Assembly: GCA_034722055.1 (NCBI GenBank)
Contig: JAYENL010000225.1
Span: 1 to 26,893, forward strand
DNA: 26,893 bases
DNA from: Armatimonadota bacterium
Lineage (GTDB): Bacteria; Armatimonadota; Zipacnadia; Zipacnadales; UBA5352
Direction of reading: 5' to 3'
Positions 7,788 to 24,553 of this stretch are shown here, one piece after another. A model generated the notes under the pieces. It was not told the origin of the DNA and did not search any database. It worked only from the letters and a program-made list of their open reading frames with translations. A program made the translations under genes and the position numbers. Position 1 is the stretch's first letter. Each line of letters opens with the position of its first letter.

Positions 7788-8255
7788 TCAGTGCACTGGC
7801 CCGGACGGACCACCAGGGCCGAGTCTCTGCAGCAGGATCTCCACGAAGGTTCGCCGGCCCCGCTCGTGCTGCACGTCCCGGCTTGCCTCACTGAGGCCGC
7901 TGCCTGCCGGGGGCCGGACCGCGATGGTGTAGCGGCCGGTGTCGGGATGCTCAAAGCGGAAGAAGCCCTCGTCCCCGGTAGTGGCCATCCCGACAACCGC
8001 ACGGCCGCGGATGAGGCGCACCTCCGCGCCAGGAACGGGAACACGCTGATCCTGCTGATCGTCCTGAGCGGTGTCCATCCCGTCCGCCGCCGCGACCACG
8101 ATGCCGCCGATGTCCGGCTCCCCGGGTGGCACCCCGCCGCCGGTGTAGGCCAGGTCGAACGAGCCGCTGCCGCAACCAGCGAGACCCGCGACCACGACTG
8201 CGAATCCCATCAGCGCGAGCAAACGCGCCCCCATGGCTGTCGGCGGAAACTTCAT
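7788..8255 (-). CDS. Lipoprotein with a carboxypeptidase-regulatory-like (transthyretin-like) beta-sandwich
   Basis: Lipobox LAG-C. The pattern IGGIVV...VPVPGAEVRL...ATTGDEGFFRFEHPDTGRYTIAV fits this fold. ATGA overlap with the upstream regulator's stop. An alternative start exists at 8234. Confidence 0.8.
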   Translation of the reverse strand: MKFPPTAMGARLLALMGFAVVVAGLAGCGSGSFDLAYTGGGVPPGEPDIGGIVVAAADGMDTAQDDQQDQRVPVPGAEVRLIRGRAVVGMATTGDEGFFRFEHPDTGRYTIAVRPPAGSGLSEASRDVQHERGRRTFVEILLQRLGPGGPSGPVH

Positions 8256-9721
8256 TCTATGGCGTCCTCCTCATCCGCAAGCAGTGCGGCAGGTCCCTCC
8301 TCCAGGTCGCGGTAGCCCCGCTCGGAAGCCTCGTCCTGGAGCTGGTCTAACAGCGTCTCATCGGCCTCGGCGACGGCCAGCAGCATCGCCGCCTGCAGCC
8401 TCAGTCGCGCCAGGCCGAGGCGGGCCGCCCGTTGCTGGCACCGGCGCAGGTGGTAGATAGCGTCATCGCACATCCCGTCTGCCAGGAAGGCCCGGCCCAG
8501 CGCCAACTGCCCCTCGGCCACCGCCAGCCCCGGCCCCGTCTCATTCGCCAGTTCGATGGCCTCCTGAGCCAGCCGTCTGGCCTCCGCGAACTGTCCTCTC
8601 CTGGTGAGCAGCTCGGCGGTGAAGATCTCCGCGAGTGCCCGCAGCCGGCGGTCGTCCGCGTGCTCCGCCAGCTCCGACAGCCGCTCCAGCAGCTCCTCCG
8701 CCTGCTCCACCTGTCCGGAGCGGAGAGAGGCGATGGCGCGGTTCAGAATGGCCTCCCGGATCTGGTCGGGAAGTCCGGCCTCGGCAGCGAGGCGGTAGTG
8801 GGTGTTCGCCTCCGCCAAGGCCCGCCCGTAGTCACCACTCGCCAGAGCGAGGTTCACCTGGTTTGACTGCACGTAGGTGCGAGCGGTAGCCAGCGCCTCG
8901 GCCGGCGCCTCCTCCAGCAGCTCCTCCGCGCGTTGCAGATGCTCCCGGGCGACCTGCAGCCGGCCCTCCTGTTCGGCGAGGGCCGCGAGCGTCACCACCG
9001 CCGACCAGCGCGGCCACCACTGTTGAGATTCAGCGAGCTCCTCGGCCTCCCCCCGGGCCTGCTCGAGCTTCCCGGCGGCCTGCCACACCCTGACACGCTC
9101 CTGGCGCGCGGACAGCTCCGCTGCCCTGTGGCCGGACGCGCGTGCCTGCTCCAGGGCCGCCTCCAGTGCCTTCTGGGCTCGGTGCATGTCGCCCAGTCCG
9201 TACGCGGCGTGGCCGAGGTGCAGGTCGGCGGCGGCCATGGAGGCCGTGTCTCCCAACTCGGCGGCCACCTCCCGCCACCGGACGGCCGTCTCCATCAGCT
9301 CCCGCATGTCGCCGGAGCGGCGGAGGGCGTGGCACAGCTCCTGAAGGGTCTCGACAAGCGCCTGGCGAGAGGCGTGAGACTGGTCCAGTCGGGCCTGGCG
9401 CTCGGCGGCGAGGGACCGTTCCAGCTCCTCACAGCGGCTCCTGCAGCGCTGGAGGTGCTCCTCAAGCTCGGCCTCCTGCCGGGAGACGCCGCTCGGATCA
9501 TCGGCGAGAAACCACTGGAGAGGCCGGTCGGTGAGACGAGCGATCTCGGTGAGCCGATCAAGCTGAGCAAGGACCTCGCCGTTGACATACTGGTAGATAA
9601 GCGCGCGCGAGCACCCCAGCGCCTCAGCGAAGGCGGTCAGTGATGGATACCCCGCCGACGCTACCGCTGACTGTATGCGCTGTCCAAGCTCTTTGCGGCC
9701 CTCGGTCACCGTGAGATCCAT
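8252..9721 (-). CDS. XRE-family HTH transcriptional regulator with a coiled coil and TPR repeats
   Basis: N-terminal LGQRIQ...SLTAFAEALGCSRALIYQYVNGE...LTEIARL...LQWFL HTH. A Glu/Arg-rich heptad linker follows, then repeated TPR-like helices (LGHAAYGLGDMHRAQKALEAAL, LGRAFLADGMCDDAIYHL). Confidence 0.88.
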   Translation of the reverse strand: MDLTVTEGRKELGQRIQSAVASAGYPSLTAFAEALGCSRALIYQYVNGEVLAQLDRLTEIARLTDRPLQWFLADDPSGVSRQEAELEEHLQRCRSRCEELERSLAAERQARLDQSHASRQALVETLQELCHALRRSGDMRELMETAVRWREVAAELGDTASMAAADLHLGHAAYGLGDMHRAQKALEAALEQARASGHRAAELSARQERVRVWQAAGKLEQARGEAEELAESQQWWPRWSAVVTLAALAEQEGRLQVAREHLQRAEELLEEAPAEALATARTYVQSNQVNLALASGDYGRALAEANTHYRLAAEAGLPDQIREAILNRAIASLRSGQVEQAEELLERLSELAEHADDRRLRALAEIFTAELLTRRGQFAEARRLAQEAIELANETGPGLAVAEGQLALGRAFLADGMCDDAIYHLRRCQQRAARLGLARLRLQAAMLLAVAEADETLLDQLQDEASERGYRDLEEGPAALLADEEDAIE

Positions 9722-15200: not shown

Positions 15201-16074
15201 GATCCAGTCGCCGACCACGCCGGCGACCGCCAACGAGTCCTGGGGCGCGACGCCCGGCGCCATCGAGGTCATTCACGCCACCGACGTCGATGGCGACGGT
15301 GTGCGCGAGATCATCGCCGGCTCAACGAACATGCACCTGTACTGCCTGCGCCCCGATGGCGAGCAGGTCTGGGAGACCCTCAACTACGCGCACAGCCCCA
15401 ACAACCTGCAGCTCGCCGACGTGGACGGCAACGGCACGCCCGAGATCGTCTGCGCCACGAACTACTGGGAGACGAACGTCTTCACGCTCGCGGGCAAGCG
15501 CTTCTTCCGCGTCAAGGGGCAGGGCCCCGGGCTGGCCGTGGCGGATATCGACGGAGACGGCGTCACCGAGTTCGTGACGGGCTCACTGAAGGGCCCGGTC
15601 GCGGTCACGGAGTACGATCCCGCCCTGGAGTTCACCGACTTCCTGCACCAGCTCCCCGGGATCTGGGCCCCACAGCCGCAGTGGCTGTTCGACACCGGCG
15701 CGAACATCGATGCCCTGCGGCTCGCCGATCTCGCGGGCGATGGCTCGACGAAGATCCTGACCTGCTCGCGCAACAGCATCGTCTACGCCCTCAACCCCGA
15801 CGGCTCGGTGCACTGGGCGCGCTCCCTGGGCGACGGCGTGCGCGCGCTGGAGGTCGCGGACCTCCATGGGGACGGCGGCCCCGAGGTGCTGGCCGGCAAC
15901 GACAGCGGACAGGTCTTCGTCCTCTCCGCGGAGGGGGAGATCATCGCACAGGCGCAGGCACCGGGACTCGTGCAGTTCGTGCGCGCTCAGGACCTCGACG
16001 GCGACGGTGTGGCCGAGGTGCTGGCGGCCACGGACGGCCCAACGCTGAGCGCCTTCGCGCTGCCCGGCGGCTGA
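12295..16074 (+). CDS. Large secreted protein: heparinase II/III-like polysaccharide lyase module plus a C-terminal FG-GAP beta-propeller
   Basis: 1259 aa, GAGGAGG RBS, hydrophobic N-terminus. Motifs CFGDS, HGHADANQI and EHNVVVV as in heparinase II/III-like proteins. Eight DxxGDGxxE/K-type repeats from DVTADGEPEL to DLDGDGVAEV. Confidence 0.8.
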   Translation: MSMMAVAPVAISLFALLAQPPEPAPVPRGRALMTEIALVEDGRPTADIAVPDDAHHRALAERVREAVEEATGARLPVIGDGRALATLGERNLVVIGNLMTNAVAARLYHNYYVASDAAHPEAGLPELRTVHDPEALGIGVVFCGGSDAEGLAASVERLLAHIEPGRDLVLPHLVETETPDLAQPLTEEALAEKLADAGPPYGAVELLISQGLSYYRSGNAAYLEACRAAIATLLPALAQEEHLTNLYGIAYLGPVWDQIEEAPVFSDEDRAVVCGFLLGCVERCERLHALDAPADRPVHYGFAEKGGNLASLYLNRFCPGMPAAEEAARRLRHFYEMQSRFWKPANEANGYQTTYATEIALWCLTNGEFAYMDSGNLARQCEYQMNAIISNYPYNTCFGDSGGTLANTSTNLLRIGAWYYGDGRYQWFNDFLGWGGHDWNLHHSYATDVPPVEPADLYGVTVIPAEKWCYRAGADEPGAPPRERAYDKVVFRSRLDRDADYLLLDGLSNFTHGHADANQIICYTDQGMWALSTGGYMVKELAEHNVVVVFRDGQGGTGAVPLLADLELVADGRDVGAVRSTLHHYNGADWSRNILWAKGRYFLVIDEVFALEPAEFVLQNWWKLFRGPTQREGRTVVSGEETQCRISGLDTAAVAQRVSRYNKAQYQETVTASLRPGESVAFMNLLQCTKAPHDDAVQARAYGTTSATVRSPDGAVRLLGSRPLVGERGLAVDAQLYAVGPDGFTLVSGRALRCGRLLFGSDRPVTADCDLARGRATLQAHAPCRVTLACGEPGAVRLGTRRADGVAWEDGTVTLSLTAGRHCLRFPPPPPDTLAEVAAALTGAWSDSRVPPPAAPGLESDAPQMAELWRFDPGGDRSAEVRLLEQADVTADGEPELLLGAEDSRLRCFDRGGGLAWEFEAPGPVCSLWVGDLLGDGQTKLVVGTGTFPHAQPGEDIFILDAAGEQVRRIQSPTTPATANESWGATPGAIEVIHATDVDGDGVREIIAGSTNMHLYCLRPDGEQVWETLNYAHSPNNLQLADVDGNGTPEIVCATNYWETNVFTLAGKRFFRVKGQGPGLAVADIDGDGVTEFVTGSLKGPVAVTEYDPALEFTDFLHQLPGIWAPQPQWLFDTGANIDALRLADLAGDGSTKILTCSRNSIVYALNPDGSVHWARSLGDGVRALEVADLHGDGGPEVLAGNDSGQVFVLSAEGEIIAQAQAPGLVQFVRAQDLDGDGVAEVLAATDGPTLSAFALPGG

Positions 16075-16104
16075 ATGCTCCAGACGGCGCGGGCCCGGAA
16101 TCGG

Positions 16105-16133
16105 TGGACTTCCACTGCGCCGCGGGGTATACT
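16105..16133 (+). promoter_or_regulatory. Sigma70-like promoter upstream of the Rhs array
   Basis: TGGACT-N17-TATACT. Confidence 0.6.
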
Positions 16134-16197
16134 CGTAGCAGGCGTGGACTGCTGCCGACGTCCCCTCTGACTCTCCACGGTCCGCGCCGCAGACGCC

Positions 16198-17778
16198 ATG
16201 GGGGTGAGGGCGTTGCGACCTCAACACACTCGGGCCTGCCACCTGCTCCGCACCTCGCACCGTGCCTGCAGCCCTTCCCTCGCTGCCTGTTCTCTGCCCG
16301 CCCTCAACAACCACGCGGCGCGGCGGGTCAGCCGGATCGAGCACCGCCAGAGCGACCTGACCGAGATCGCCACGCTCGACTACGAGTACGATGGGGTGGG
16401 CAACCCCACCAAGATCGTGCGCGAAGATGGGGCCGCCACCTACTATTCGTACGACGACATCTACCAGCTCACCGGGGAGGCGCAGGTGGACGCGCAGGGC
16501 GCGCCGATCTTCGAGGCCCAGTACGACTACGACGGGGCGCACAACCGGACCGTGAAGGTGGTCGATGGCACGCCGACGTACTATGCCTACAACGAGGCCA
16601 ATCAGCTCCTGACCGAGACCACCGGGGAGGAGACTGTCTACTACTCATACGACGGCTGCGGGAACACGATCGCGAAGCAGGAGGCCGCCGGGATCACCTA
16701 CTATGTCTACGATGTCGAGAACCTGATGACGCGCATCGACTTCCCGGACGACGGGCACAGCTACTACAGCTATGACGCTGACTCGAAGCGTGTAGACCAG
16801 CGGACACCGGATGGCTTCCGGGAGTTCGTCTACCAGGGGCCGGATATGCTGAAGCTGCAACTGGAGCGGGACGAGAGCGAGACCACCGTGGCCCATTACA
16901 CCATGGGCGATGGGCTGGAGGCCATGCGGCGCGACAACGAGAGCAGCTTCTATCACTTCAATCACCTCGGCACCGCGATAGCGCTGACCGGCGCGGATGA
17001 GGCGGTGACGGATACCTACCGCCACGACGCCTGGGGCGTGCTGCTGGAGAGCACCGGCGCCACCGTCAACCCGCACACCTACGTGGGCCGCGAGCGCTAC
17101 TATCGGATGCCCAACGCGGCCATGTATCACCTCGGGCTCCGGGACTACGCTCAGGGGAGTGGGAGGCTGCTCACGCAGGATCCCCTGGAGCAGGCGGAAC
17201 GTTTCGCGTACTCGGCGAACCGGCCCACCACGTTCACCGACCCTAGTGGCCAATGGGGTTGCGACCCGCTAGCATGCGCGAAACGGAGCCGCACCTACGA
17301 CACGCCAAAGAGACCATTCGAGAGGACGTTCAAGGGCATCTGTCCGTCGGGATTCCCTGGGACTTACCATGTCATGTATGAGAAGTGGTGGGAGGTAAGA
17401 GAGGTCTGGAAGTGTGTTCCAGATCCTGACAGCTACTGGGTCTGCTACGGTAAGGAAGCTTGCCGGAGGGTGGACATCATACCGCACCGCAAGATTGGTC
17501 GGCGGCGCGGCAAGGATTGGTTCTGCATACCTGACTTCGACCGTATTCCTCCGGTCCCGACCCCTCCCGAATGGGACGAATGGCGCCGGCGATGCGGGCA
17601 TATCTGCCGAGTGTCGTGCGAGATCGTCGGCCTGATCGCCTGTGTGCTTATCTGTACGCCTGTCACTACCGTGCCTCCGATCCGCATCACATGTGACGTT
17701 GTTTGTCATGAGGTCACGAGTGCAGTTACCTGCGAGAGCTTGTGCGACGGCCTTTGCGAGGAGAACTGGCATTGGTAG
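16198..17778 (+). CDS. N-terminally truncated Rhs-repeat protein (cassette 1) with a cysteine-rich C-terminal toxin domain
   Basis: YD repeats (YEYDGVGN, YSYDDIYQLT, YAYNEANQL), Rhs core HLGT...DAWG...YHLGLRDY...QDP and the cleavage motif PTTFTDPSG (ends 17250), then a 175-aa tip with 17 Cys. Rhs similarity starts only at about 16315 and the true start is uncertain. Confidence 0.85.
   Translation: MGVRALRPQHTRACHLLRTSHRACSPSLAACSLPALNNHAARRVSRIEHRQSDLTEIATLDYEYDGVGNPTKIVREDGAATYYSYDDIYQLTGEAQVDAQGAPIFEAQYDYDGAHNRTVKVVDGTPTYYAYNEANQLLTETTGEETVYYSYDGCGNTIAKQEAAGITYYVYDVENLMTRIDFPDDGHSYYSYDADSKRVDQRTPDGFREFVYQGPDMLKLQLERDESETTVAHYTMGDGLEAMRRDNESSFYHFNHLGTAIALTGADEAVTDTYRHDAWGVLLESTGATVNPHTYVGRERYYRMPNAAMYHLGLRDYAQGSGRLLTQDPLEQAERFAYSANRPTTFTDPSGQWGCDPLACAKRSRTYDTPKRPFERTFKGICPSGFPGTYHVMYEKWWEVREVWKCVPDPDSYWVCYGKEACRRVDIIPHRKIGRRRGKDWFCIPDFDRIPPVPTPPEWDEWRRRCGHICRVSCEIVGLIACVLICTPVTTVPPIRITCDVVCHEVTSAVTCESLCDGLCEENWHW
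16524..17184 (+). repeat. Rhs core repeat copy 1
   Basis: Aligns with 18408-19086, and its 16755-17070 part aligns with 20189-20504. 16648-16838 is identical to 18532-18722. Confidence 0.9.
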
Positions 17779-17815
17779 CATAACTACGCTCTCGTCTGCA
17801 AAATAGGAGGAATAT

Positions 17816-18439
17816 ATGCGCGTAACAAGTAAGCGAGTCAATCAAGAGAAGACGAGTATGAGAGGACGTGTGATGTTCGTATTGGTGCTCACAGCAGCTC
17901 TTGTAGGCTGCAGCAGGCAGGGAGGGAGGTCCACAGACCTGCCGCGCGGCCAGAGGCATGCGCCTCCCGCACAGGAGCAGCAAGCCAAGACGAAAGGTAC
18001 CGACAGTACGCTGACTAACGAAGATGCCGCGGACCGCGTCATCGCCGATCCGAGGTACACGCAAGCCGCAGCGACACTGCTCGAGGCCCTGCGCCGCAAG
18101 TACCCGCGAATCCGCTTCGCCATCAACTGGGACAGGAAGCGGCTTCAGGTAGACATGCTGAATGTACAGATCCCCGGACCCGAAGAGCAGCCAGATGTCC
18201 GTACTGGAGGCCTGTTCCGGGATGTAATCCGAACATGCCTACGGACCCCATCTCCGCCCACTGAGGAGTTGTGGATATCGGCCCTGTCAGACGGCGGGAG
18301 AGGACAGGAACGTGGGCGATGGGCGGGCTACGAGCAAGCGGAGGGTATCGAGACCCCACATCCCGGAGACATGAGTGACAAGGCACTGGAGGGCCGGTCT
18401 TCCGCTGCGACTACGACGGGGCGCACAACCGGACCGTGA
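17816..18439 (+). CDS. Putative immunity lipoprotein for Rhs cassette 1
   Basis: AGGAGG RBS 5 nt before the ATG, 37 nt after the toxin stop. Signal peptide with lipobox LVG-C. Visibly lower GC than the housekeeping-style genes. Confidence 0.7.
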   Translation: MRVTSKRVNQEKTSMRGRVMFVLVLTAALVGCSRQGGRSTDLPRGQRHAPPAQEQQAKTKGTDSTLTNEDAADRVIADPRYTQAAATLLEALRRKYPRIRFAINWDRKRLQVDMLNVQIPGPEEQPDVRTGGLFRDVIRTCLRTPSPPTEELWISALSDGGRGQERGRWAGYEQAEGIETPHPGDMSDKALEGRSSAATTTGRTTGP

Positions 18440-19710
18440 AGGTGGTCGATGGCACGCCTACCTACTATGCCTACAACGAGGCCAATCAACTGCTGACCGA
18501 GACCACCGGGGAGGAGACCGTCTACTACTCGTACGACGGCTGCGGGAACACGATCGCGAAGCAGGAGGCCGCCGGGATCACCTACTATGTCTACGATGTC
18601 GAGAACCTGATGACGCGCATCGACTTCCCGGACGACGGGCACAGCTACTACAGCTATGACGCTGACTCGAAGCGTGTAGACCAGCGGACACCGGATGGCT
18701 TCCGGGAGTTCGTCTACCAGGGCCCGGACTGCCAGAGCTGGCCGCAGGCCAGCTCCCTGCAGCTCGAGCGGGACGAGAGCGAGGAGACGGTGGCGCACTA
18801 CACCATGGGCTCGGGGCTGGAGGCCATGCGCCGCGACAGCACCAGCAGCTTCTATCACTTCAATCACCTCGGCACCGCGCTGGCGCTGACCGCCGCGGAT
18901 GGGGCGGTGACCGACACGTATCGCCACGACGCCTGGGGCGTGCTGCTGGCGAGCACCGGCGCGACGGTCAACCCCCACACCTACGTCGGCCGCGAGCGCT
19001 ACTACCGCATGCCGAACGCGGACCTCTACCACCTGGGCTTCCGCGACTACGCGCAGCGGCTGGGGCGGTTCATGACGGTGGATCCTGTCATGCATGGCGA
19101 GCTCGCCGCATCCGATCTGGCTTGGCCAAGTGCGGACTTCGGTTGGGCGCAGGAAGCCGCGTCGCGACAGGACGTGAGCAAGTTGCGGCACGTCATGACG
19201 CTGGTACGGCGTTCCATCCCGGCCGTGTTCTCGCGGGCCAGGGTAGGCTCGCGGTCTTACACATACGCCCGGAACCTGACTCTCCGCCTCACTGACCCGC
19301 TTGGCTTGCAGCCGGGGAAGGGAGGAGGCACCACTTGCGAGGATGCCCGCGACGCTGAACTGGACACCGCGCTATGGGTATACGAGCAGATGAAGACGAA
19401 GACGAGGCAGTGGGAGCAGCGCGCATTGCAGGAGTGTAGGACGACGTGCCGGAAGAAGTTCCCGCCTACACCGGGGGATTTCGCCTATATCAGTTGCGTG
19501 CACCTGTGCGAATCTGCGGTAAGCATTGCTGCCGACATCTGGCGCGCTGGGATCTACCTGTACTACGCAGTCTCCATTGCCCTTGTTTGGGCACGCTACG
19601 CCGCTTGCATAGCGTGTAAGCCCATCAGCGATGAATTGGCGGAGATCATCCGCGGCTTGGAGTTGATGCTACAGGATCTGCGTGCCAAGCTCGGCCCAGG
19701 CAAGCCATAG
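18436..19710 (+). CDS. Orphan Rhs cassette 2 (core fragment plus a different Cys-containing hydrophobic C-terminal toxin)
   Basis: Near-identical core to cassette 1 from 18408. Motifs RFMTVDP and YTYARNLTLRLTDPLG (ends 19305), then a 134-aa unique tip. Confidence 0.85.
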   Translation: MKVVDGTPTYYAYNEANQLLTETTGEETVYYSYDGCGNTIAKQEAAGITYYVYDVENLMTRIDFPDDGHSYYSYDADSKRVDQRTPDGFREFVYQGPDCQSWPQASSLQLERDESEETVAHYTMGSGLEAMRRDSTSSFYHFNHLGTALALTAADGAVTDTYRHDAWGVLLASTGATVNPHTYVGRERYYRMPNADLYHLGFRDYAQRLGRFMTVDPVMHGELAASDLAWPSADFGWAQEAASRQDVSKLRHVMTLVRRSIPAVFSRARVGSRSYTYARNLTLRLTDPLGLQPGKGGGTTCEDARDAELDTALWVYEQMKTKTRQWEQRALQECRTTCRKKFPPTPGDFAYISCVHLCESAVSIAADIWRAGIYLYYAVSIALVWARYAACIACKPISDELAEIIRGLELMLQDLRAKLGPGKP

Positions 19711-19728
19711 TCTAAGGGAGGTGGTGAG

Positions 19729-20160
19729 GTGCGTACGGCAATCGTGATCGTATCAGCCGCAATCGCGTGGCTGCTGGTTCTCGCGATCGCCACACAACCG
19801 CTGATCGCTGCGTCCGAAGGCGCCCGCGCAGGACCATCGCTGGCATTCGCCTATCTCGCCTTCGTCGCCGCGCTCTCTCTCGTTGCGGGCCTCGCGGTTG
19901 GGCGTCTCGGATCGACGAGCCACTGGTCGGGTGCCATACTGGGCCTTGTGCTGGCGGGAGGCATGATGCTTCTGGTTCTCGCTGCTGCCGCGGGCCTGCC
20001 CGTGCCCGGGTTGTTGAGTGTCGGCATCGTCGTCGTGACCTTGATCATCCCAAGTGCCTGGTGCGGCGCGTGGCTTGGCAGTCGCCGCCACCGTGGGTCT
20101 GAGGATGAACAGAGGGGCGTGCCCGAGGTGTTTAACTCGAAAAGCACGCGACGGTCCTGA
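19729..20160 (+). CDS. Putative membrane immunity protein (about 4 TM helices) for Rhs cassette 2
   Basis: GGAGG RBS and a GTG start 18 nt after the toxin stop. Four hydrophobic segments. Confidence 0.72.
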   Translation: MRTAIVIVSAAIAWLLVLAIATQPLIAASEGARAGPSLAFAYLAFVAALSLVAGLAVGRLGSTSHWSGAILGLVLAGGMMLLVLAAAAGLPVPGLLSVGIVVVTLIIPSAWCGAWLGSRRHRGSEDEQRGVPEVFNSKSTRRS

Positions 20161-20188
20161 CAGCGCCCACCGCCTTCGCGGCGGGCGC

Positions 20189-20504
20189 GCACAGTTACTA
20201 CTCCTACGACGCTGATTCGAAGCGGGTAGACCAGCGGACCGCGGACGGATTCCGGGAGTTCGTGTATCAGGGGCCGGACATGCTGAAGCTGCAACTGGAG
20301 CGCGACGAGAGCGAGGAGACGGTGGCGCACTACACCATGGGCTCGGGGCTGGAGGCGATGCGCCGCGACAGCACGAGCAGCTTCTACCACTTCAACCATC
20401 TGGGCACGACGCTGGCGCTGACCGGCGCGGACGAGGCGGTCAGTGATACGTATCGCCACGACGCGTGGGGCGTTTTGCTGGCGAGCACCGGCAGCACCGT
20501 CAAT
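20189..20504 (+). pseudogene. Rhs core fragment (cassette 3) with no DPxG motif or toxin
   Basis: 316 nt collinear with 16755-17070 (HSYYSYDADSKRVDQRT...DAWGVLLASTGSTVN). Similarity then ends abruptly. Confidence 0.85.
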
Positions 20505-20798
20505 ACTTGGGATGAGTGTGTGTGGCATGAGTCCGACGGGAACACGCTCAGCGCTGGCTCATAGTAAGAGTACCGTACCGTGATTTCGAAAACGCCTGAC
20601 CTGCTCGGGGCCACATCTGCTGCCCGCCGAGCCCGCCGAGGATTTCCCGGGCGAGATCTTCCGCCAAGTCAGCTACTCTGGGTCGCGATGTACTCCTGCA
20701 TCTTCTTCGGACCGGCCCACCACTGCGCTGAGATGGGCCAGATAACGGCGCCGAAGCGGGGCCCCGGTAGTTCGAACAGCCATCAGGAGAGGTCAACT

Positions 20799-23700
20799 AT
20801 GCGTCTTAGGACTCTCGCCTCGATCGCGGTGCTATGTATCGCCGCGCCGGTGCCGGCCGCGGAGCAGGGCGATGTTCTGCTGTATCTGCCACTGGACGGG
20901 AGCGTGCAGCCCCGCATCGCCGCCGAGCCCACCGAGGTGTCGGTGAGCGGCCCAGAGGAGTACGCTGAGGGGATGATCGGCCGGGCGCTGGTGGTCGGCG
21001 ACGGGGCCGCCCAGCTTGAGCTGCCTGCGAAGGGCAATGTTCTGGCCGAGCGCGGCACCGTTGAGATGTGGGTCTGCCCCTTGGACTGGAGTGGAGGCGA
21101 CAGCAAGTTCCACGAGTTCTTCGCGACCTCCGGGGAGGGCTGGATCCTGCTCTACAAGTACCTCTCCCCGGGCAGGCTGCTGTTTTTGATGGCTGATGAC
21201 CGCGCGGCTCAGAGCTGGATGACCGCCGCGGCCAACATCCGCGACTGGGAGCCCGGGCAGTGGCACCACATCGCCGCGACCTGGCGCACCGGGGAGATCG
21301 CCGTCTACGTCGAACGTCAGCAAGCCGCCTCCGTCCCGGAAGCCCCGCTGTCGCCGGACGTGGGCGAGGTCATACAGCTCGGCGACCGACCGTGGCATAT
21401 CGAGCGCGATGCCCGCACGCTCATCGACGAGGTGGTCGTCTATCGACGCGCCCTGGCGGCCGCGGAAGTCGAGGCGTCGTACCGGCGCGCGCAGCCGATC
21501 GCACCCTCGGACCGTCCGCTGGTGATGCTGGGGCCCGGCGAGGCCCCCACGATCGACGGGCAGATGGATCAGGACGAATGGAACTCGGCCTGCGCGGTGA
21601 CGGGATTCGTGGACAACATTACGGGGGAGGTCGCGCGGCGCCACACGTGGGCCTACCTGGCGCGCGACGATGATGCGCTCTCCCTGGCATTCCTCAGCGA
21701 GCTGCCTGAGGGCGGCCTGGTGGACACCGTGCGCGAGGCGGATGGCCCGGTGTGGCATGACGACGCCATCGAGGTGTTCATCGATCCCAGCGCCGGTGTC
21801 GAGCGCGACGCCTACTACCACCTCATCGTCAACCCCTCCGGCGTTTGCTACACCTCGCGTGGCAAGGACAGCCCTGAGCGCTGGAGCCCTGACCTTCGCG
21901 TGGCGTCCGACGTGTCGGCCGACGTGTGGATGGTGGAGATCGCCATCCCCTGGGAGGACCTGGGCGGGCCGCCGGAGGAGGGAGAGACCTGGGGACTCAA
22001 TCTCTGCCGCGATTGGCAGAAGCCGACGCAATGGACCTCCTGGGCGCACGTGCGCAACTTCCACGATTCAGGCGGATACGGCCGACTGGTGTTCGCTGAG
22101 GCGCCCTTCGTCCAGGTGGTGGAGCTCGGCCGGCTGGAGCGAGGCCAGCTCAGGCTCACGGGTCACACTCGGGGCGCCGCAGCCAGAGAGGTGGTCCGCG
22201 TTCTGCGCCGTGACCGGGAGGTCTTCGCCGAGGAGATGGCCCTGGTGCCGGAGCCGGGAGACGTAGCCCTGTTGGACGCCGAGACTGACCTCGACGAGAG
22301 CGGCGCCTACCGCCTGGAGATCGAAGTCCGGCGCCAGGCCGATGATGCCCTGTGCTACTGGATGACCGCCCCGTTCACGTACTTCCCCGCGCTGCGGCTG
22401 TCATCCCGGCCGCGCCCGGACCTGGGAGTGTGGCGCCTGACGGCCGATGTCAGCGGCTGGCGCGGCCCACGCCAGGACCTGTCCGTCCGGCTGCAGACCA
22501 CCGATCCCGCTGGCGAGGTGATCTGGGAGGGCGCTGTCAGCGAGTTCGAGGGTGATCGCACGACCGCTGAGATGCCCGAGCAGGAGATCGGTGCCGGCGA
22601 GTACCGCATCCGCGGCCGGCTCATTGCGGATGGCGGAGAGGTGGCCGACGCGGAGATTACCCAGGTGAAGCCCGATGTGTCCGCCTGGTGGGGCAATGAC
22701 CTCTACGAGGAGCTTGAGGTGCTTCCGCCGTGGACGCCCGTGCAGGTGGAGGGCGCCACGGTGCGGACCTGGGGGCGCTCCTACGAGTGGGACGGCCCCC
22801 TGCCCGCGAAGATCAGCAGCCACGGCGAGCAGATGCTCAGTCGCCCCATGACGCTGGTCGTCACTACGGAAGATGGCGCTGTCCAGTGGCGGAACGCCGC
22901 CGCCTGGGTCGCGCAGCACCGTGATGTGTTTGCCGTCGTCGAGGGGCGAGCGGAGGGCGGCCCGGTGGCCGCGCGCACGCGCTGCACGACGGAGTTCGAC
23001 GGCATGACGCGCGTGGACCTTGAGTTGGTGCCAGACGGGACGGCGAATCTGCAGTCGGTCAGGCTCGAGATCCCCATGCGCGCCGAGAGCGCCACACTCA
23101 GACACTTCCAAGGCAGTCCCAGGAATGAGCCGGTCTCCGGGGCGATAGCCCCGGGGGGGGACAGGTCTGGTCCTCAGAGCGCTTCCGGCCCTACTACTGG
23201 CTGGGCGACGAAGAGCGCGGCCTCATGTGGTTCTGTGAGAGCGATCAGGGCTGGGTGGCGGGCCAGCGGCCGCCCATGCGCCTCGAGCGTCGCAACGATG
23301 AGGCCGTCCTCGTGATCGAGCCGATCGCAGGACCGACCACGCTCGATGAGCCCTGGGGATGGACCTTCGGGCTGCACGCGACGCCCGTGAAGCCCTTCCC
23401 TCAGCGGTGGCGCTCTCTTCGTATGCGAGGCGACGGTGGGCGGATCAGTATCCTGTGGTCCACGCCGTCGCTGCTGAAGTACTTCGGCTACGCTGAGGCG
23501 GCCGATCCGGAGGCCTTCGCAGCACGGGTTGCGGGTCTGCGCGAGGCTGCGCAGCTCGCCGTTCCCTACTCCAACCTGCGCATGCTGTCTGAGCAGAGCC
23601 CGGAGTGGCAGTACTTCGGCGCAGTGTGGGGGGTGCCCGGCCGAGCGGATCGCAGCTCCAGCGACGTCGGCGCCTTTGGCGCGCCCTTCATGGGCGTATG

Positions 23701-24553
23701 CCCAGCGGCTGAGGGCTGGGCCGACTTCGTGGTCTGGAAGAACAAGCAGTACGTGCAGACCTACGGCCTCGGCGGCCTCTATCACGACCACTCGGTGCCG
23801 GTGGCCTGCGACAATCCCCTGCACGCCTGCGGCTGGGAGGACGCTGAGGGCGCGCGCCACAGCCGCTTCCCCATCTTCGCCGCCCGCGATCTCTACCGCC
23901 GCATCTACGCCATGCTCAAGGACCAGCCCTACGAGACCTTCATGATGGGCCACATGTCGGGCCGCCTGATGATCCCGATGCTCTCGTTCTGCGACGCCTA
24001 CCTCGACGGCGAGCACTTCCGGGGTCGCGTGGTCGATGACTACACGCAGCTTCTGTCGCTCGACGCCTTCCGGGCCGAGTTCATGGGCAAACAGTGGGGT
24101 GTGCTCCCGTATCTTCTGCCGGAGTTCCCCGAGGGGGTGAGGGACGAGCGCGCCCCCACGAGGCACCTGATGTCGCTCACGGTCCTGCACGACACGCTGG
24201 TGTGGCCCTCGTGGTGCAACCGAGAGGTAGTCTTCGGGGTCCGGGAGGCCCTGGACGAGTTCGGCTACGTGGATGCACAGTTCCTGGGCTACTGGGACAA
24301 CAACGCGTGGCTGAGGCGCGGCCAGGAGGGAGTGAAGGTCAGCGCCTACACGAGGGATGGCCGGGCGTTGCTGATCGTCTCGAACCTCGCCGCCGAGCTA
24401 CAGGACATTAGGCTGGAGGTGGACGCCGCGGTCCTGGGCGTTGTTGGGGCCTCAGCGATCAACGCCGAGACTGGGGATCGGCTGCCAATCGCGGACGGGA
24501 CCGTCACGTTGAGCATCCCCGCGCGGGACCTAGCGCTGGTATGGCTGGAGTAG
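20799..24553 (+). CDS. Secreted LamG + CBM9-like + GH123/DUF6067-like protein, interrupted by a frameshift in a G8 tract at 23153-23160
   Basis: ATG 20799 with AGGAG RBS and a signal peptide. LamG (GTVEMWVCPLDW, WHHIAATW, IDEVVVY), CBM9-like (PTIDGQMD, DDAIEVFIDP, WMVEIAIPW, WGLNLCR) and TEFDGM motifs. Adding one G joins it in frame to GQVWSSERFRPYYWLGDEERGLMWFCESD...GLYHD, giving 1251 aa. Confidence 0.8.

Follow-up and report, generated by a model that had tools for sequence, protein, structure and literature searches.

The window analyzed here is an entire contig, C225 (JAYENL010000225.1; 26,893 nucleotides), of the 6.1-Mb Armatimonadota assembly GCA_034722055.1, which has 330 contigs and is 92.7% complete. 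Between positions 16105 and 20504 of its forward strand it holds a tandem array of Rhs units with truncated cores, two of which end in Cys-rich tips that are each followed by a gene for an envelope protein. The question raised by this locus is what such truncated units are for and which carrier they belong to. The relatives that share this Rhs core are genome bins named Ca. Zipacnadia, Armatimonadota, or candidate division WS1, and their carrier often consists of two genes: A, which encodes a shell of ~1100 amino acids (aa), and B, which encodes a cap-and-tip cartridge of ~540-620 aa and often occurs in tandem. We consider it probable that the window holds a satellite array of 5′-truncated cartridges of this split carrier, serving as recombination donors next to expressed immunity genes and bearing Cys-stapled tips that act on the envelope.

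Organization of the array

The array runs from a promoter-like site through a core with tip 1, a lipoprotein gene, a core with tip 2, a gene for a four-transmembrane (4-TM) protein, and a tipless stub. Every part that a preliminary description of the window had listed was found where that description had placed it. The features, with positions in the window, are as follows.

16105..16133, forward strand: sigma70-like promoter candidate, TGGACT-N17-TATACT, positioned to transcribe the array and probably serving the immunity genes
16198..17778, forward strand: open reading frame (ORF) of unit 1, starting with ATG; the public gene call, P0001, begins 5 codons later
17251..17775, forward strand: tip 1, 175 aa, 17 Cys
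17816..18439, forward strand: immunity 1 candidate, a lipoprotein of 207 aa with Shine-Dalgarno (SD) sequence AGGAGG and lipobox LVG-C32
18379-19710, forward strand: open frame of unit 2, with its core at 18408..19308, from B residue ~141
19309..19710, forward strand: tip 2, 133 aa (coding to 19707), 7 Cys
19729..20160, forward strand: immunity 2 candidate, a membrane protein of 143 aa with 3-4 TM helices by hydropathy
20156/20175-20504, forward strand: unit 3 stub, B core residues ~216-325, with no start, DP motif, or tip

Unit 1 consists of a non-Rhs leader of ~37 aa, a B core that begins at B residue ~74 (~16310 in the window), a DP..DPSG segment with DPSG at 17239-17250, and tip 1; its core is 72% identical to P0009 from residue 74. 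The core homology of unit 2 begins at 18408, equivalent to 16524 (88% nucleotide identity), and that of the stub begins at the equivalent of 16722 by blastn, with clean identity from ~16755 (83%). Successive copies thus start deeper and deeper in the core, as had been described, and B residues up to ~73, ~140, and ~215, respectively, are missing from the three units, which agrees with their earlier reading as orphan-type cassettes. The cores are mutually 81-88% identical in DNA. They belong to the YD/RHS repeat families PF05593 and TIGR01643, and they score 38 bits (unit 1) and 32.4 bits (unit 2) against TIGR03696 (Rhs_assc_core; cut-off 32.5). An Rhs tip is freed just after DPxG. Self-cleavage is predicted here from the Asp-Pro motif pairs DPLE..DPSG of unit 1 and DPVM..DPLG of unit 2 (DPLG at 19294-19305, with a 51-aa insert between the two DP motifs), and the stub lacks any such motif. 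In unit 2, an 18-nt insertion at 18730-18760, in which CQSWPQASS replaces ML K, removes an internal Met at which the gene calls of many relatives begin; G007:C35 (L042) carries this insertion too.

The promoter-like site that had been proposed is present and is the single match in 15800-21000, but since 0.8 such sites are expected by chance, the promoter is plausible by position only. The 5′ leader at 16138-16320 shows no unusual structure (z -1.2), and no second copy of it was found elsewhere in the genome. The final 10 codons of the lipoprotein gene are read from core 2 sequence in another frame. We do not regard the lipoprotein as functionally cut, because the end of its homolog, described below, falls at the same domain position.

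The stretch is present in contigs of four runs (X1-X4) of one study with the label brine metagenome, X1 possibly being its source; no RNA data set is listed among those that contain it. These contigs bridge the flank and core 1; tip 1, the lipoprotein gene, and core 2; tip 2, the 4-TM gene, and the stub; and the stub and its flank. No listed contig piece of X1-X4 spans the whole array. A contig of X3 joins 16647 to 18532, with 191 letters that fit both sides, and omits the tip and lipoprotein of unit 1; this junction may be a repeat collapse and was set aside as evidence.

A carrier split between two genes

Gene A of the relatives has a variable Cys- and Pro-rich head, in which DUF6531 scores below its cut-off only, followed by a YD shell; no signal peptide was seen. 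Intact A frames span 1099 codons in G064 and 1098 codons in G055. Gene B has a conserved start, a ~390-aa shell end with a DP..DPxG site, and a variable tip, and is followed by an immunity gene. The conserved start, M[SAGN][HQ]R..F.YD, is found in 22 of 124 fetched proteins. Among 103 homologs, drawn from a search restricted to proteins of 267-853 aa, 29 align from B residues 1-5, compared with at most 9 for any other 20-residue bin. Fourteen B starts could be placed in their loci: ten come directly after an A-type end and its stop codon, one is an in-frame stub, and three are without an A remnant. At the A/B junctions, the SD sequence of B lies inside the last codons of A, and three different frame relations between the two genes occur. 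Because the frame relation varies between loci, we interpret A/B as translational coupling of two genes, and we rejected a programmed frameshift or readthrough at the junction on the same ground.

The gene order in G064:C14 is GT4, GT2, GT4, GT4 (glycosyltransferases, GT), an IscU-like gene, A, B1, a lipoprotein gene, B2, and a lipoprotein gene, and G055:C528 holds two modules of this kind, one A being in two frames. P0047 is a fused A+B form. L070 has an intact B and no A, and the cassettes that come after this B begin at residues 73 and 208; on alignment, these cut points are close to those of the window units (74, ~141, and 216). In the genome of the window itself, contig C13 overlaps C145 by 233 bases, and together they give the order stub, GT2, methyltransferase, IscU-like gene, collapsed A, intact 619-aa B, and immunity gene. 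Searches of this assembly gave no further A or B start, and the N-terminal domain of its A has no match in 40 relatives. The preliminary description had suggested a core search for a full-length parent Rhs; the parent form is often split into shell and cartridge, and the core search of this assembly found no direct parent.

The carrier is also split at a second, later point in G414 (L232, G414:C3), G341 (L227/L228), and G151 (L254/L255). In these loci the shell gene stops about 125 residues before DPxG, and Cys-rich B genes of 250-340 aa with their own starts follow singly or in tandem (up to three). This late-split form occurs in near-complete genomes, and a cultured relative may allow tests. 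In L050 (G008:C6), three stubs each hold the A/B junction and each is followed by an unrelated gene, so the junction may be an insertion hotspot.

Tip 1 and its lipoprotein

Neither tip 1, tip 2, nor either partner protein reaches a Pfam or NCBIfam cut-off. Searches of PDB sequences returned nothing for one tip and one chance row for the other, and the ESM Atlas gave no usable match for either. The characterization of both tips as Cys-rich and outside known families is upheld by these searches.

Tip 1 is built from an N-terminal 7-Cys module, a Pro linker, and a C-terminal 10-Cys module. In the latter, the Cys spacing is mirrored (3,3,7,3,[12],3,8,3,3) and one stretch is hydrophobic (KD19 2.11), and the five-rung mirrored spacing in the tip-1 family has a p of about 0.01 relative to shuffled spacings. 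Five relatives of tip 1 (P0002-P0006) were found, and a metagenome scan with tip 1 gave no match. The tip of P0002 is 73% identical to tip 1 while its core is only 52% identical to that of unit 1; therefore, the tip moves between cores. The two modules are separable, since P0005 shares only the N-terminal module and L163 only the C-terminal one. Tip 1 scores E 0.035 and 0.023 against the halocin C8-like families TIGR04449 and TIGR04450 (15.1 and 14.3 bits versus cut-offs of 24 and 27), and four tip-1 relatives searched as whole proteins do not match these domains at E up to 5. Membership in this group was rejected given the sub-cut-off scores and the unmatched relatives.

A word-indexed search detected no homolog of the lipoprotein; a genome search then found one. 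It lies in G033:C1209 (30%, E 1.4e-11), directly behind a distant homolog of tip 1 (23%, E 8e-5) that sits on a distant core, in another family. This is one independent locus in which the pairing of tip 1 with the lipoprotein is conserved. The G033:C1209 tip has eight Cys in its C-terminal module, one fewer per arm. A manual alignment puts His at both places of the lost Cys; MAFFT aligned that homolog differently. Elsewhere, the lipoprotein encoded by L156:291-1166 (G038:C24) carries the immunity-1 domain twice in tandem; no Rhs was seen in this 2.3-kb locus, and the gene is possibly a stand-alone immunity gene.

Tip 2 and the 4-TM protein

Searches of 78 further genomes of the class and of 105 further tips gave no homolog of tip 2. 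A single-sequence fold prediction (pLDDT 89.7) models tip 2 as a hairpin of two ~42-residue helices (10-50 and 58-101) with an additional helix at 108-128. The Cys pairs 10/100, 43/67, and 47/63 are symmetric about the hairpin turn, with a twin CX3C motif. Of the structure searches that had been suggested for both tips, only those of tip 2 had a usable model: Foldseek gave no match at E 0.001, and a VIA fold search gave generic helical bundles only, the best being a designed bundle (Z 9.7, rmsd 4.4).

The modelled complex of tip 2 and the 4-TM protein scored 0.78 over three runs, versus 0.00 for the best of three controls, with at least 96% contact agreement between runs and a pLDDT of 78 for the partner. 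The mark used for such models is reached by 51 of 78 solved pairs and by 2 of 108 mismatched pairs. In the modelled interface, the apolar segment 73-94 of tip 2 lies on the first three TM segments of the 4-TM protein. The model supports a reading of tip 2 as a membrane-inserting toxin that the 4-TM protein would block inside the membrane, which follows the logic reported for Tse5 (PMC10684867). The proposal that both immunity candidates are cognate and envelope-located is thus supported, as far as comparison and modelling go, by a lipoprotein that is co-conserved with tip 1 and a 4-TM protein that is modelled on tip 2. Both putative toxins belong to undescribed Cys-rich families that probably attack the envelope.

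Tips and immunity genes across the clade

We cut 118 tips from the 124 fetched proteins and from loci, and 106 were kept after short tips and duplicates had been removed; 22 further frames were tipless, and a few distant rows of the 106-tip set may derive from other phyla. The 106 tips fall into 76 clusters and are mosaics of Cys modules. Their median Cys content is 4.8%, and 71 of the 106 have at least six Cys, versus 0.6% and none for 13 control tips drawn from two genomes that belong to other phyla (genome background, 1.2%). Cys ladders of at least three rungs occur in 13 of 71 tips, versus a mean of 7.7 and a maximum of 13 in 200 shuffles. Ladders are therefore a minority class that comes partly from the tip-1 family itself.

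Beyond the Rhs families, Pfam searches of 96 of the 124 proteins identified polysaccharide deacetylase (3), SLT transglycosylase (2), 3D (1), DUF6973 (1), and DUF2334 (1) domains, and no nuclease, deaminase, or ADP-ribosyltransferase family. The recognized clade tips are thus enzymes of wall or polysaccharide. Downstream of 29 locus tips, 23 next genes were callable, and the products of 21 of these look exported or membrane-bound by crude hydropathy; the census pattern returned no rows for other Armatimonadota. The idea of envelope-acting tips seems, on this evidence, to extend from the window to the clade as a rule. Five other tips (P0028, P0030, P0033, P0039, and P0091) carry HExxH metalloprotease-like motifs, and that of P0085 an L,D-transpeptidase-like HxG..GC motif; these were recognized by eye and have no Pfam match.

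An orphan cassette on contig C42 of the same genome as the window (L021:261-2263) has an SLT-transglycosylase-like tip (E 0.08) and an exported partner, and the relatives P0048 and P0075 are SLT-transglycosylase-like at E 5e-4 and 1.5e-3. C42 begins with a 126-bp repeat shared by at least 8 other contigs, and a repeated-element end abuts its array. A Desulfobacterota bin, G427 (the genome of L048), has 77 Rhs-core matches, many of them short tandem cassettes, with Cys-poor tips.

An IscU-like gene beside the carrier

In relatives, gene A sits behind an IscU-like gene within a glycosyltransferase cluster. The encoded protein is a variant that has G.PG.G[NP][YF] where the CGD motif (first Cys and Asp) is expected, that keeps the YGC/FGC and HC/YC cysteines, and that scores 128 of 187.9 bits against TIGR03419. 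Our census of such genes, which like the search for B starts was made in Armatimonadota only, recognized 40 distinct frames from 59 locus ids after duplicates had been merged, with some loci unparsed; 27 frames are variant and 13 canonical. An Rhs frame lies at most 1.5 kb downstream in 17 of 26 informative variant loci and in none of the 13 canonical loci, counts that are descriptive since kin are not independent. Longer fetches revealed, by eye, Rhs genes behind four more variant loci. Variant genes include L023:1148-1525 (on C145 of the same genome as the window), L095, L098, L121, L124, L126, L129, L134, L140, L142, L144, L192, L196, L198, L208, L210, and L211. Across Armatimonadota, a variant IscU/NifU_N gene stands directly upstream of Rhs or of a small Cys-rich gene before Rhs, and canonical IscU genes adjoin IscS-type genes. 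The IscU-like gene offers a handle on the maturation or export of Rhs proteins that have neither PAAR nor a signal peptide.

Delivery and the state of the cysteines

The window had been noted to lack PAAR and VgrG, and this extends to the genome: PAAR, VgrG, and TssC, which mark a type VI secretion system (T6SS), were not found in any of five genomes including G000 (86-93% complete), in which the controls were detected. TssC was also not found in five further genomes, two of them 98-99% complete, nor was the WXG100 family found in the five genomes searched for it. The marker PF06841 of extracellular contractile injection systems (eCIS) gave no match, but no control was detected either, so this result is uninformative. 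One reading of these data is a T6SS-independent Rhs weapon with a shared shell and separate cartridges. The IscU-derived protein would mature or adapt the cargo in the cytoplasm (metal, sulfur, or disulfide), the linked glycosyltransferases would modify or anchor the particle, the tips would be combinatorial Cys-stapled mini-toxins against the envelope, and the window would hold two of them with their antidotes. As a joint claim, this is possible but rather doubtful.

The cysteines themselves had been taken as a sign of oxidatively folded toxins, an idea that found no support. Neither DsbB nor VKOR turned up in G000 or in four relatives, in which controls were detected (the genomes are incomplete). 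There is no even-Cys bias among exported proteins (142 of 274, versus 409 of 848 cytoplasmic proteins, by crude ORF and signal calls), nor among the tips (43 of 105). Oxidative folding is therefore unsupported, and the tips agree with nested disulfides as well as with CX3C/CX3C zinc sites. A tentative alternative, which keeps the rest of the system as it is, has the cysteines serve in the cytoplasm as ligands of a metal, either zinc or an Fe-S fragment, instead of forming disulfides, with the paired CX3C motifs of facing helices making four-ligand sites and the IscU-like protein supplying metal or sulfur to the tips or to the Cys-rich head of A. Along with the undetected oxidases and the missing bias, it would account for the variant IscU gene in front of Rhs, for the lack of a visible signal peptide on A, and for the His residues that the manual alignment puts in place of one Cys per arm in the distant tip-1 homolog. 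Paired loss of Cys fits a disulfide too, however, and the MAFFT alignment of that homolog differs. Nested disulfides also fit the mirrored five-rung spacing of the tip-1 family and the 10/100 pair of tip 2, which is distant from the other pairs. Finally, a DsbA-like Thioredoxin_4 protein is present in G000 and G064, and the calls behind the bias test are crude. We hold this alternative to be possible but not likely.

The role of the truncated units

In the reading that we favor, A and B would co-assemble into one shell, by analogy with TcB and TcC, and several payloads at once would come from tandem B genes, each with a start of its own. Because they lack the first ~73, ~140, and ~215 B residues, the window units are probably unable to close a shell; being truncated B genes, they are most likely a recombination reserve with expressed immunity. 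They would donate a new tip by recombination onto an intact B, with expression of both immunity genes maintained from the promoter at 16105. The models, the hydropathy, and the pairing of genes suggest that the tips are Cys-stapled helical hairpins directed at the envelope of the target. Insertion into the inner membrane is most likely for tip 2, which the 4-TM protein would block there, as modelled, and tip 1 may be intercepted on the outer face by the lipoprotein.

Several observations weigh against this reading. Many Armatimonadota Rhs proteins are full length, and because the homolog search was restricted to 267-853 aa, fused forms are under-counted. The A gene of the same genome as the window (L023:1556-2091) is reduced to an N-terminal piece plus its final ~80 codons and runs over two frames that include a stop, through either deletion or assembly collapse. 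The closest intact B of this assembly (on C145) is only 48% identical to the window core, the core relatives with 88-90% nucleotide identity (on C13 and C42) are truncated too, and no direct recipient or parent of the window core was found in the 92.7% complete, 330-contig assembly. In G008, three B starts end after 26 codons; a kept B start therefore need not mean a live cartridge. As for the tips, the prediction for tip 1 (pLDDT 42.6) gave no usable model, the mirrored Cys spacing of tip 2 is not significant on its own (p 0.13), and tip 2 is only borderline hydrophobic (KD19 1.48). The mark for modelled complexes is also reached by 7 of 44 blind neighbors, and hydrophobic helices may pack well in a model. 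The control for envelope-located immunity consists of only two rows, both of which are envelope proteins too, and 8 of the 26 variant IscU loci have no Rhs by BLAST within 1.5 kb.

Some of these points would also be expected of a decaying relic, in which delivery is dead in this strain and the array is kept as an immunity bank or by drift. The collapsed A, the truncation of every other core, the tipless stub, and the repeated-element end that abuts the C42 array all fit such decay. We nevertheless find it unlikely: both tips, both immunity genes, and the B gene on C145 are intact, the assembly is incomplete, with breaks at Rhs repeats, and the array recurs among the contigs of four runs.

Alternatively, the window units could be live cartridges or toxin-antitoxin modules, translated from the 16105 promoter with starts at 16198 or 16213 for unit 1 and at GTG 18436 for unit 2, and then loaded in trans into a shell or else active against the producing cell. 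Internal expression has been reported for Salmonella orphans (PMC7043789), which would allow a live role for the window units. In the window, however, 73-140 residues of the conserved B start are absent, the 37-aa leader of unit 1 is unrelated to it, and the unit 2 start lies inside the lipoprotein gene. Envelope-located immunity would not guard against a cytoplasmic toxin, and the A gene of this assembly is collapsed. We judge this alternative very unlikely. Least probable of all is a role of the tips in recognition or adhesion, as polymorphic modules that a glycosylated surface structure displays, with the downstream envelope proteins as receptors in kin recognition; the T6SS, WXG100, and PAAR markers that were not found, the tie to glycosyltransferase, sulfotransferase, and methyltransferase genes, and the mosaic tips, mostly without catalytic family, agree with it, but the Asp-Pro motifs for self-cleavage are retained, the clade includes several tips that are enzymes of wall or polysaccharide, and the tip/partner layout of the orphan arrays is typical of polymorphic toxins.

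Genomic surroundings

The array lies in a region of glycan-degradation genes, to which it had been linked. In G007, an oxidoreductase gene, and no Rhs, lies upstream of the ortholog (77%) of the gene on the right flank. The gene on the left flank has many paralogs (3-8 per genome). A functional link was rejected on these grounds, and the glycan-degradation surroundings look incidental.

Two other observations concern this region. At 20796-24553, a LamG/CBM9/GH123-like gene is split over two overlapping frames (one ending at 23315, the other at 23225-24553); its ortholog in G007:C110 is a single frame of 1252 codons (81% nucleotide identity). At 8252-9721 on the reverse strand, a gene for an HTH_3 and TPR regulator-like protein faces away from a DUF4382 gene.

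Comparison with known systems

There are known examples of orphan arrays, of Rhs tips that act on membranes, and of YD shells encoded by two genes. Like the orphan rhs-CT/immunity arrays (Zhang et al. 2012, PMC3482391; Starsta et al. 2020, PMC7043789), the window array combines tandem truncated cores, DPxG, a variable tip, a downstream immunity gene, and a possible internal promoter. Unlike them, it has Cys-rich tips without a Pfam or NCBIfam family, envelope-located immunity, a parent that is often split into A and B, and no T6SS markers found. The words NifU, IscU, disulfide, and halocin do not occur in the 300,000 characters examined of PMC3482391.

Tse5 (RhsP1) of Pseudomonas aeruginosa, with its immunity protein Tsi5, is a pore-forming Rhs protein with an Rhs-packed C-terminal toxin that acts on the inner membrane (PMC10684867, a paper in which the word disulfide does not occur). 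The window core is homologous to it (E 6e-13), with no tip similarity found, and Tse5 is a T6SS-delivered single chain, unlike the split carrier here. Bacterial teneurin-like proteins have a YD shell without T6SS; PMC13018210 describes most of them with Sec signals and surface anchors and reports a cleaved C-terminal domain (CTD) that is disulfide-tethered to the shell, whereas here no signal was seen and the carrier is split. A teneurin-like protein is the best PDB sequence match of the window core (E 1e-15).

The tips recall other Cys-rich folds. Halocin C8-like domains have a ten-Cys hydrophobic C-terminal module, as does tip 1. Plant alpha-hairpinin/vicilin-N repeats, like tip 2, have CX3C-X15-CX3C across a helix-turn-helix (tip 2 versus Vicilin_N: E 0.031, 14.6 bits, cut-off 26.7), and the small Tim proteins are twin-CX3C helical hairpins that resemble it as well. 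The twin-CX3C likeness of tip 2 is most likely convergence.

Among the matches listed in our literature searches, subscription papers and supplements aside, there was no split antibacterial Rhs with immunity arrays, none for Armatimonadota, no IscU/NifU-like Rhs neighbor, and no such Cys-rich tip repertoire. Rhs biology so far comes mostly from T6SS-bearing Proteobacteria and nuclease-type tips. The present lineage is a pool of dozens of unrelated Cys-rich tips that look envelope-directed, with matched immunity proteins.

A parallel to the split carrier is the BC shell of ABC (Tc) toxins, TcB plus TcC, a YD shell likewise encoded by two genes, with several interchangeable cap-and-cargo subunits, some from distant loci; in PMC11067744, the orphan TcC YenC3 is used in trans, and it is suggested that other RHS proteins may behave alike. 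A two-gene shell and cartridge, split at two points in one phylum, makes this idea of orphans as live subunits testable. Unlike TcB, gene A of G064 and G055 matches RHS/YD families only, with no SpvB, TcdB-mid, or TcB-type family, and unlike the Tc system, the B core has ~390 aa (~125 aa in the late-split form) and the immunity genes point to bacterial targets.

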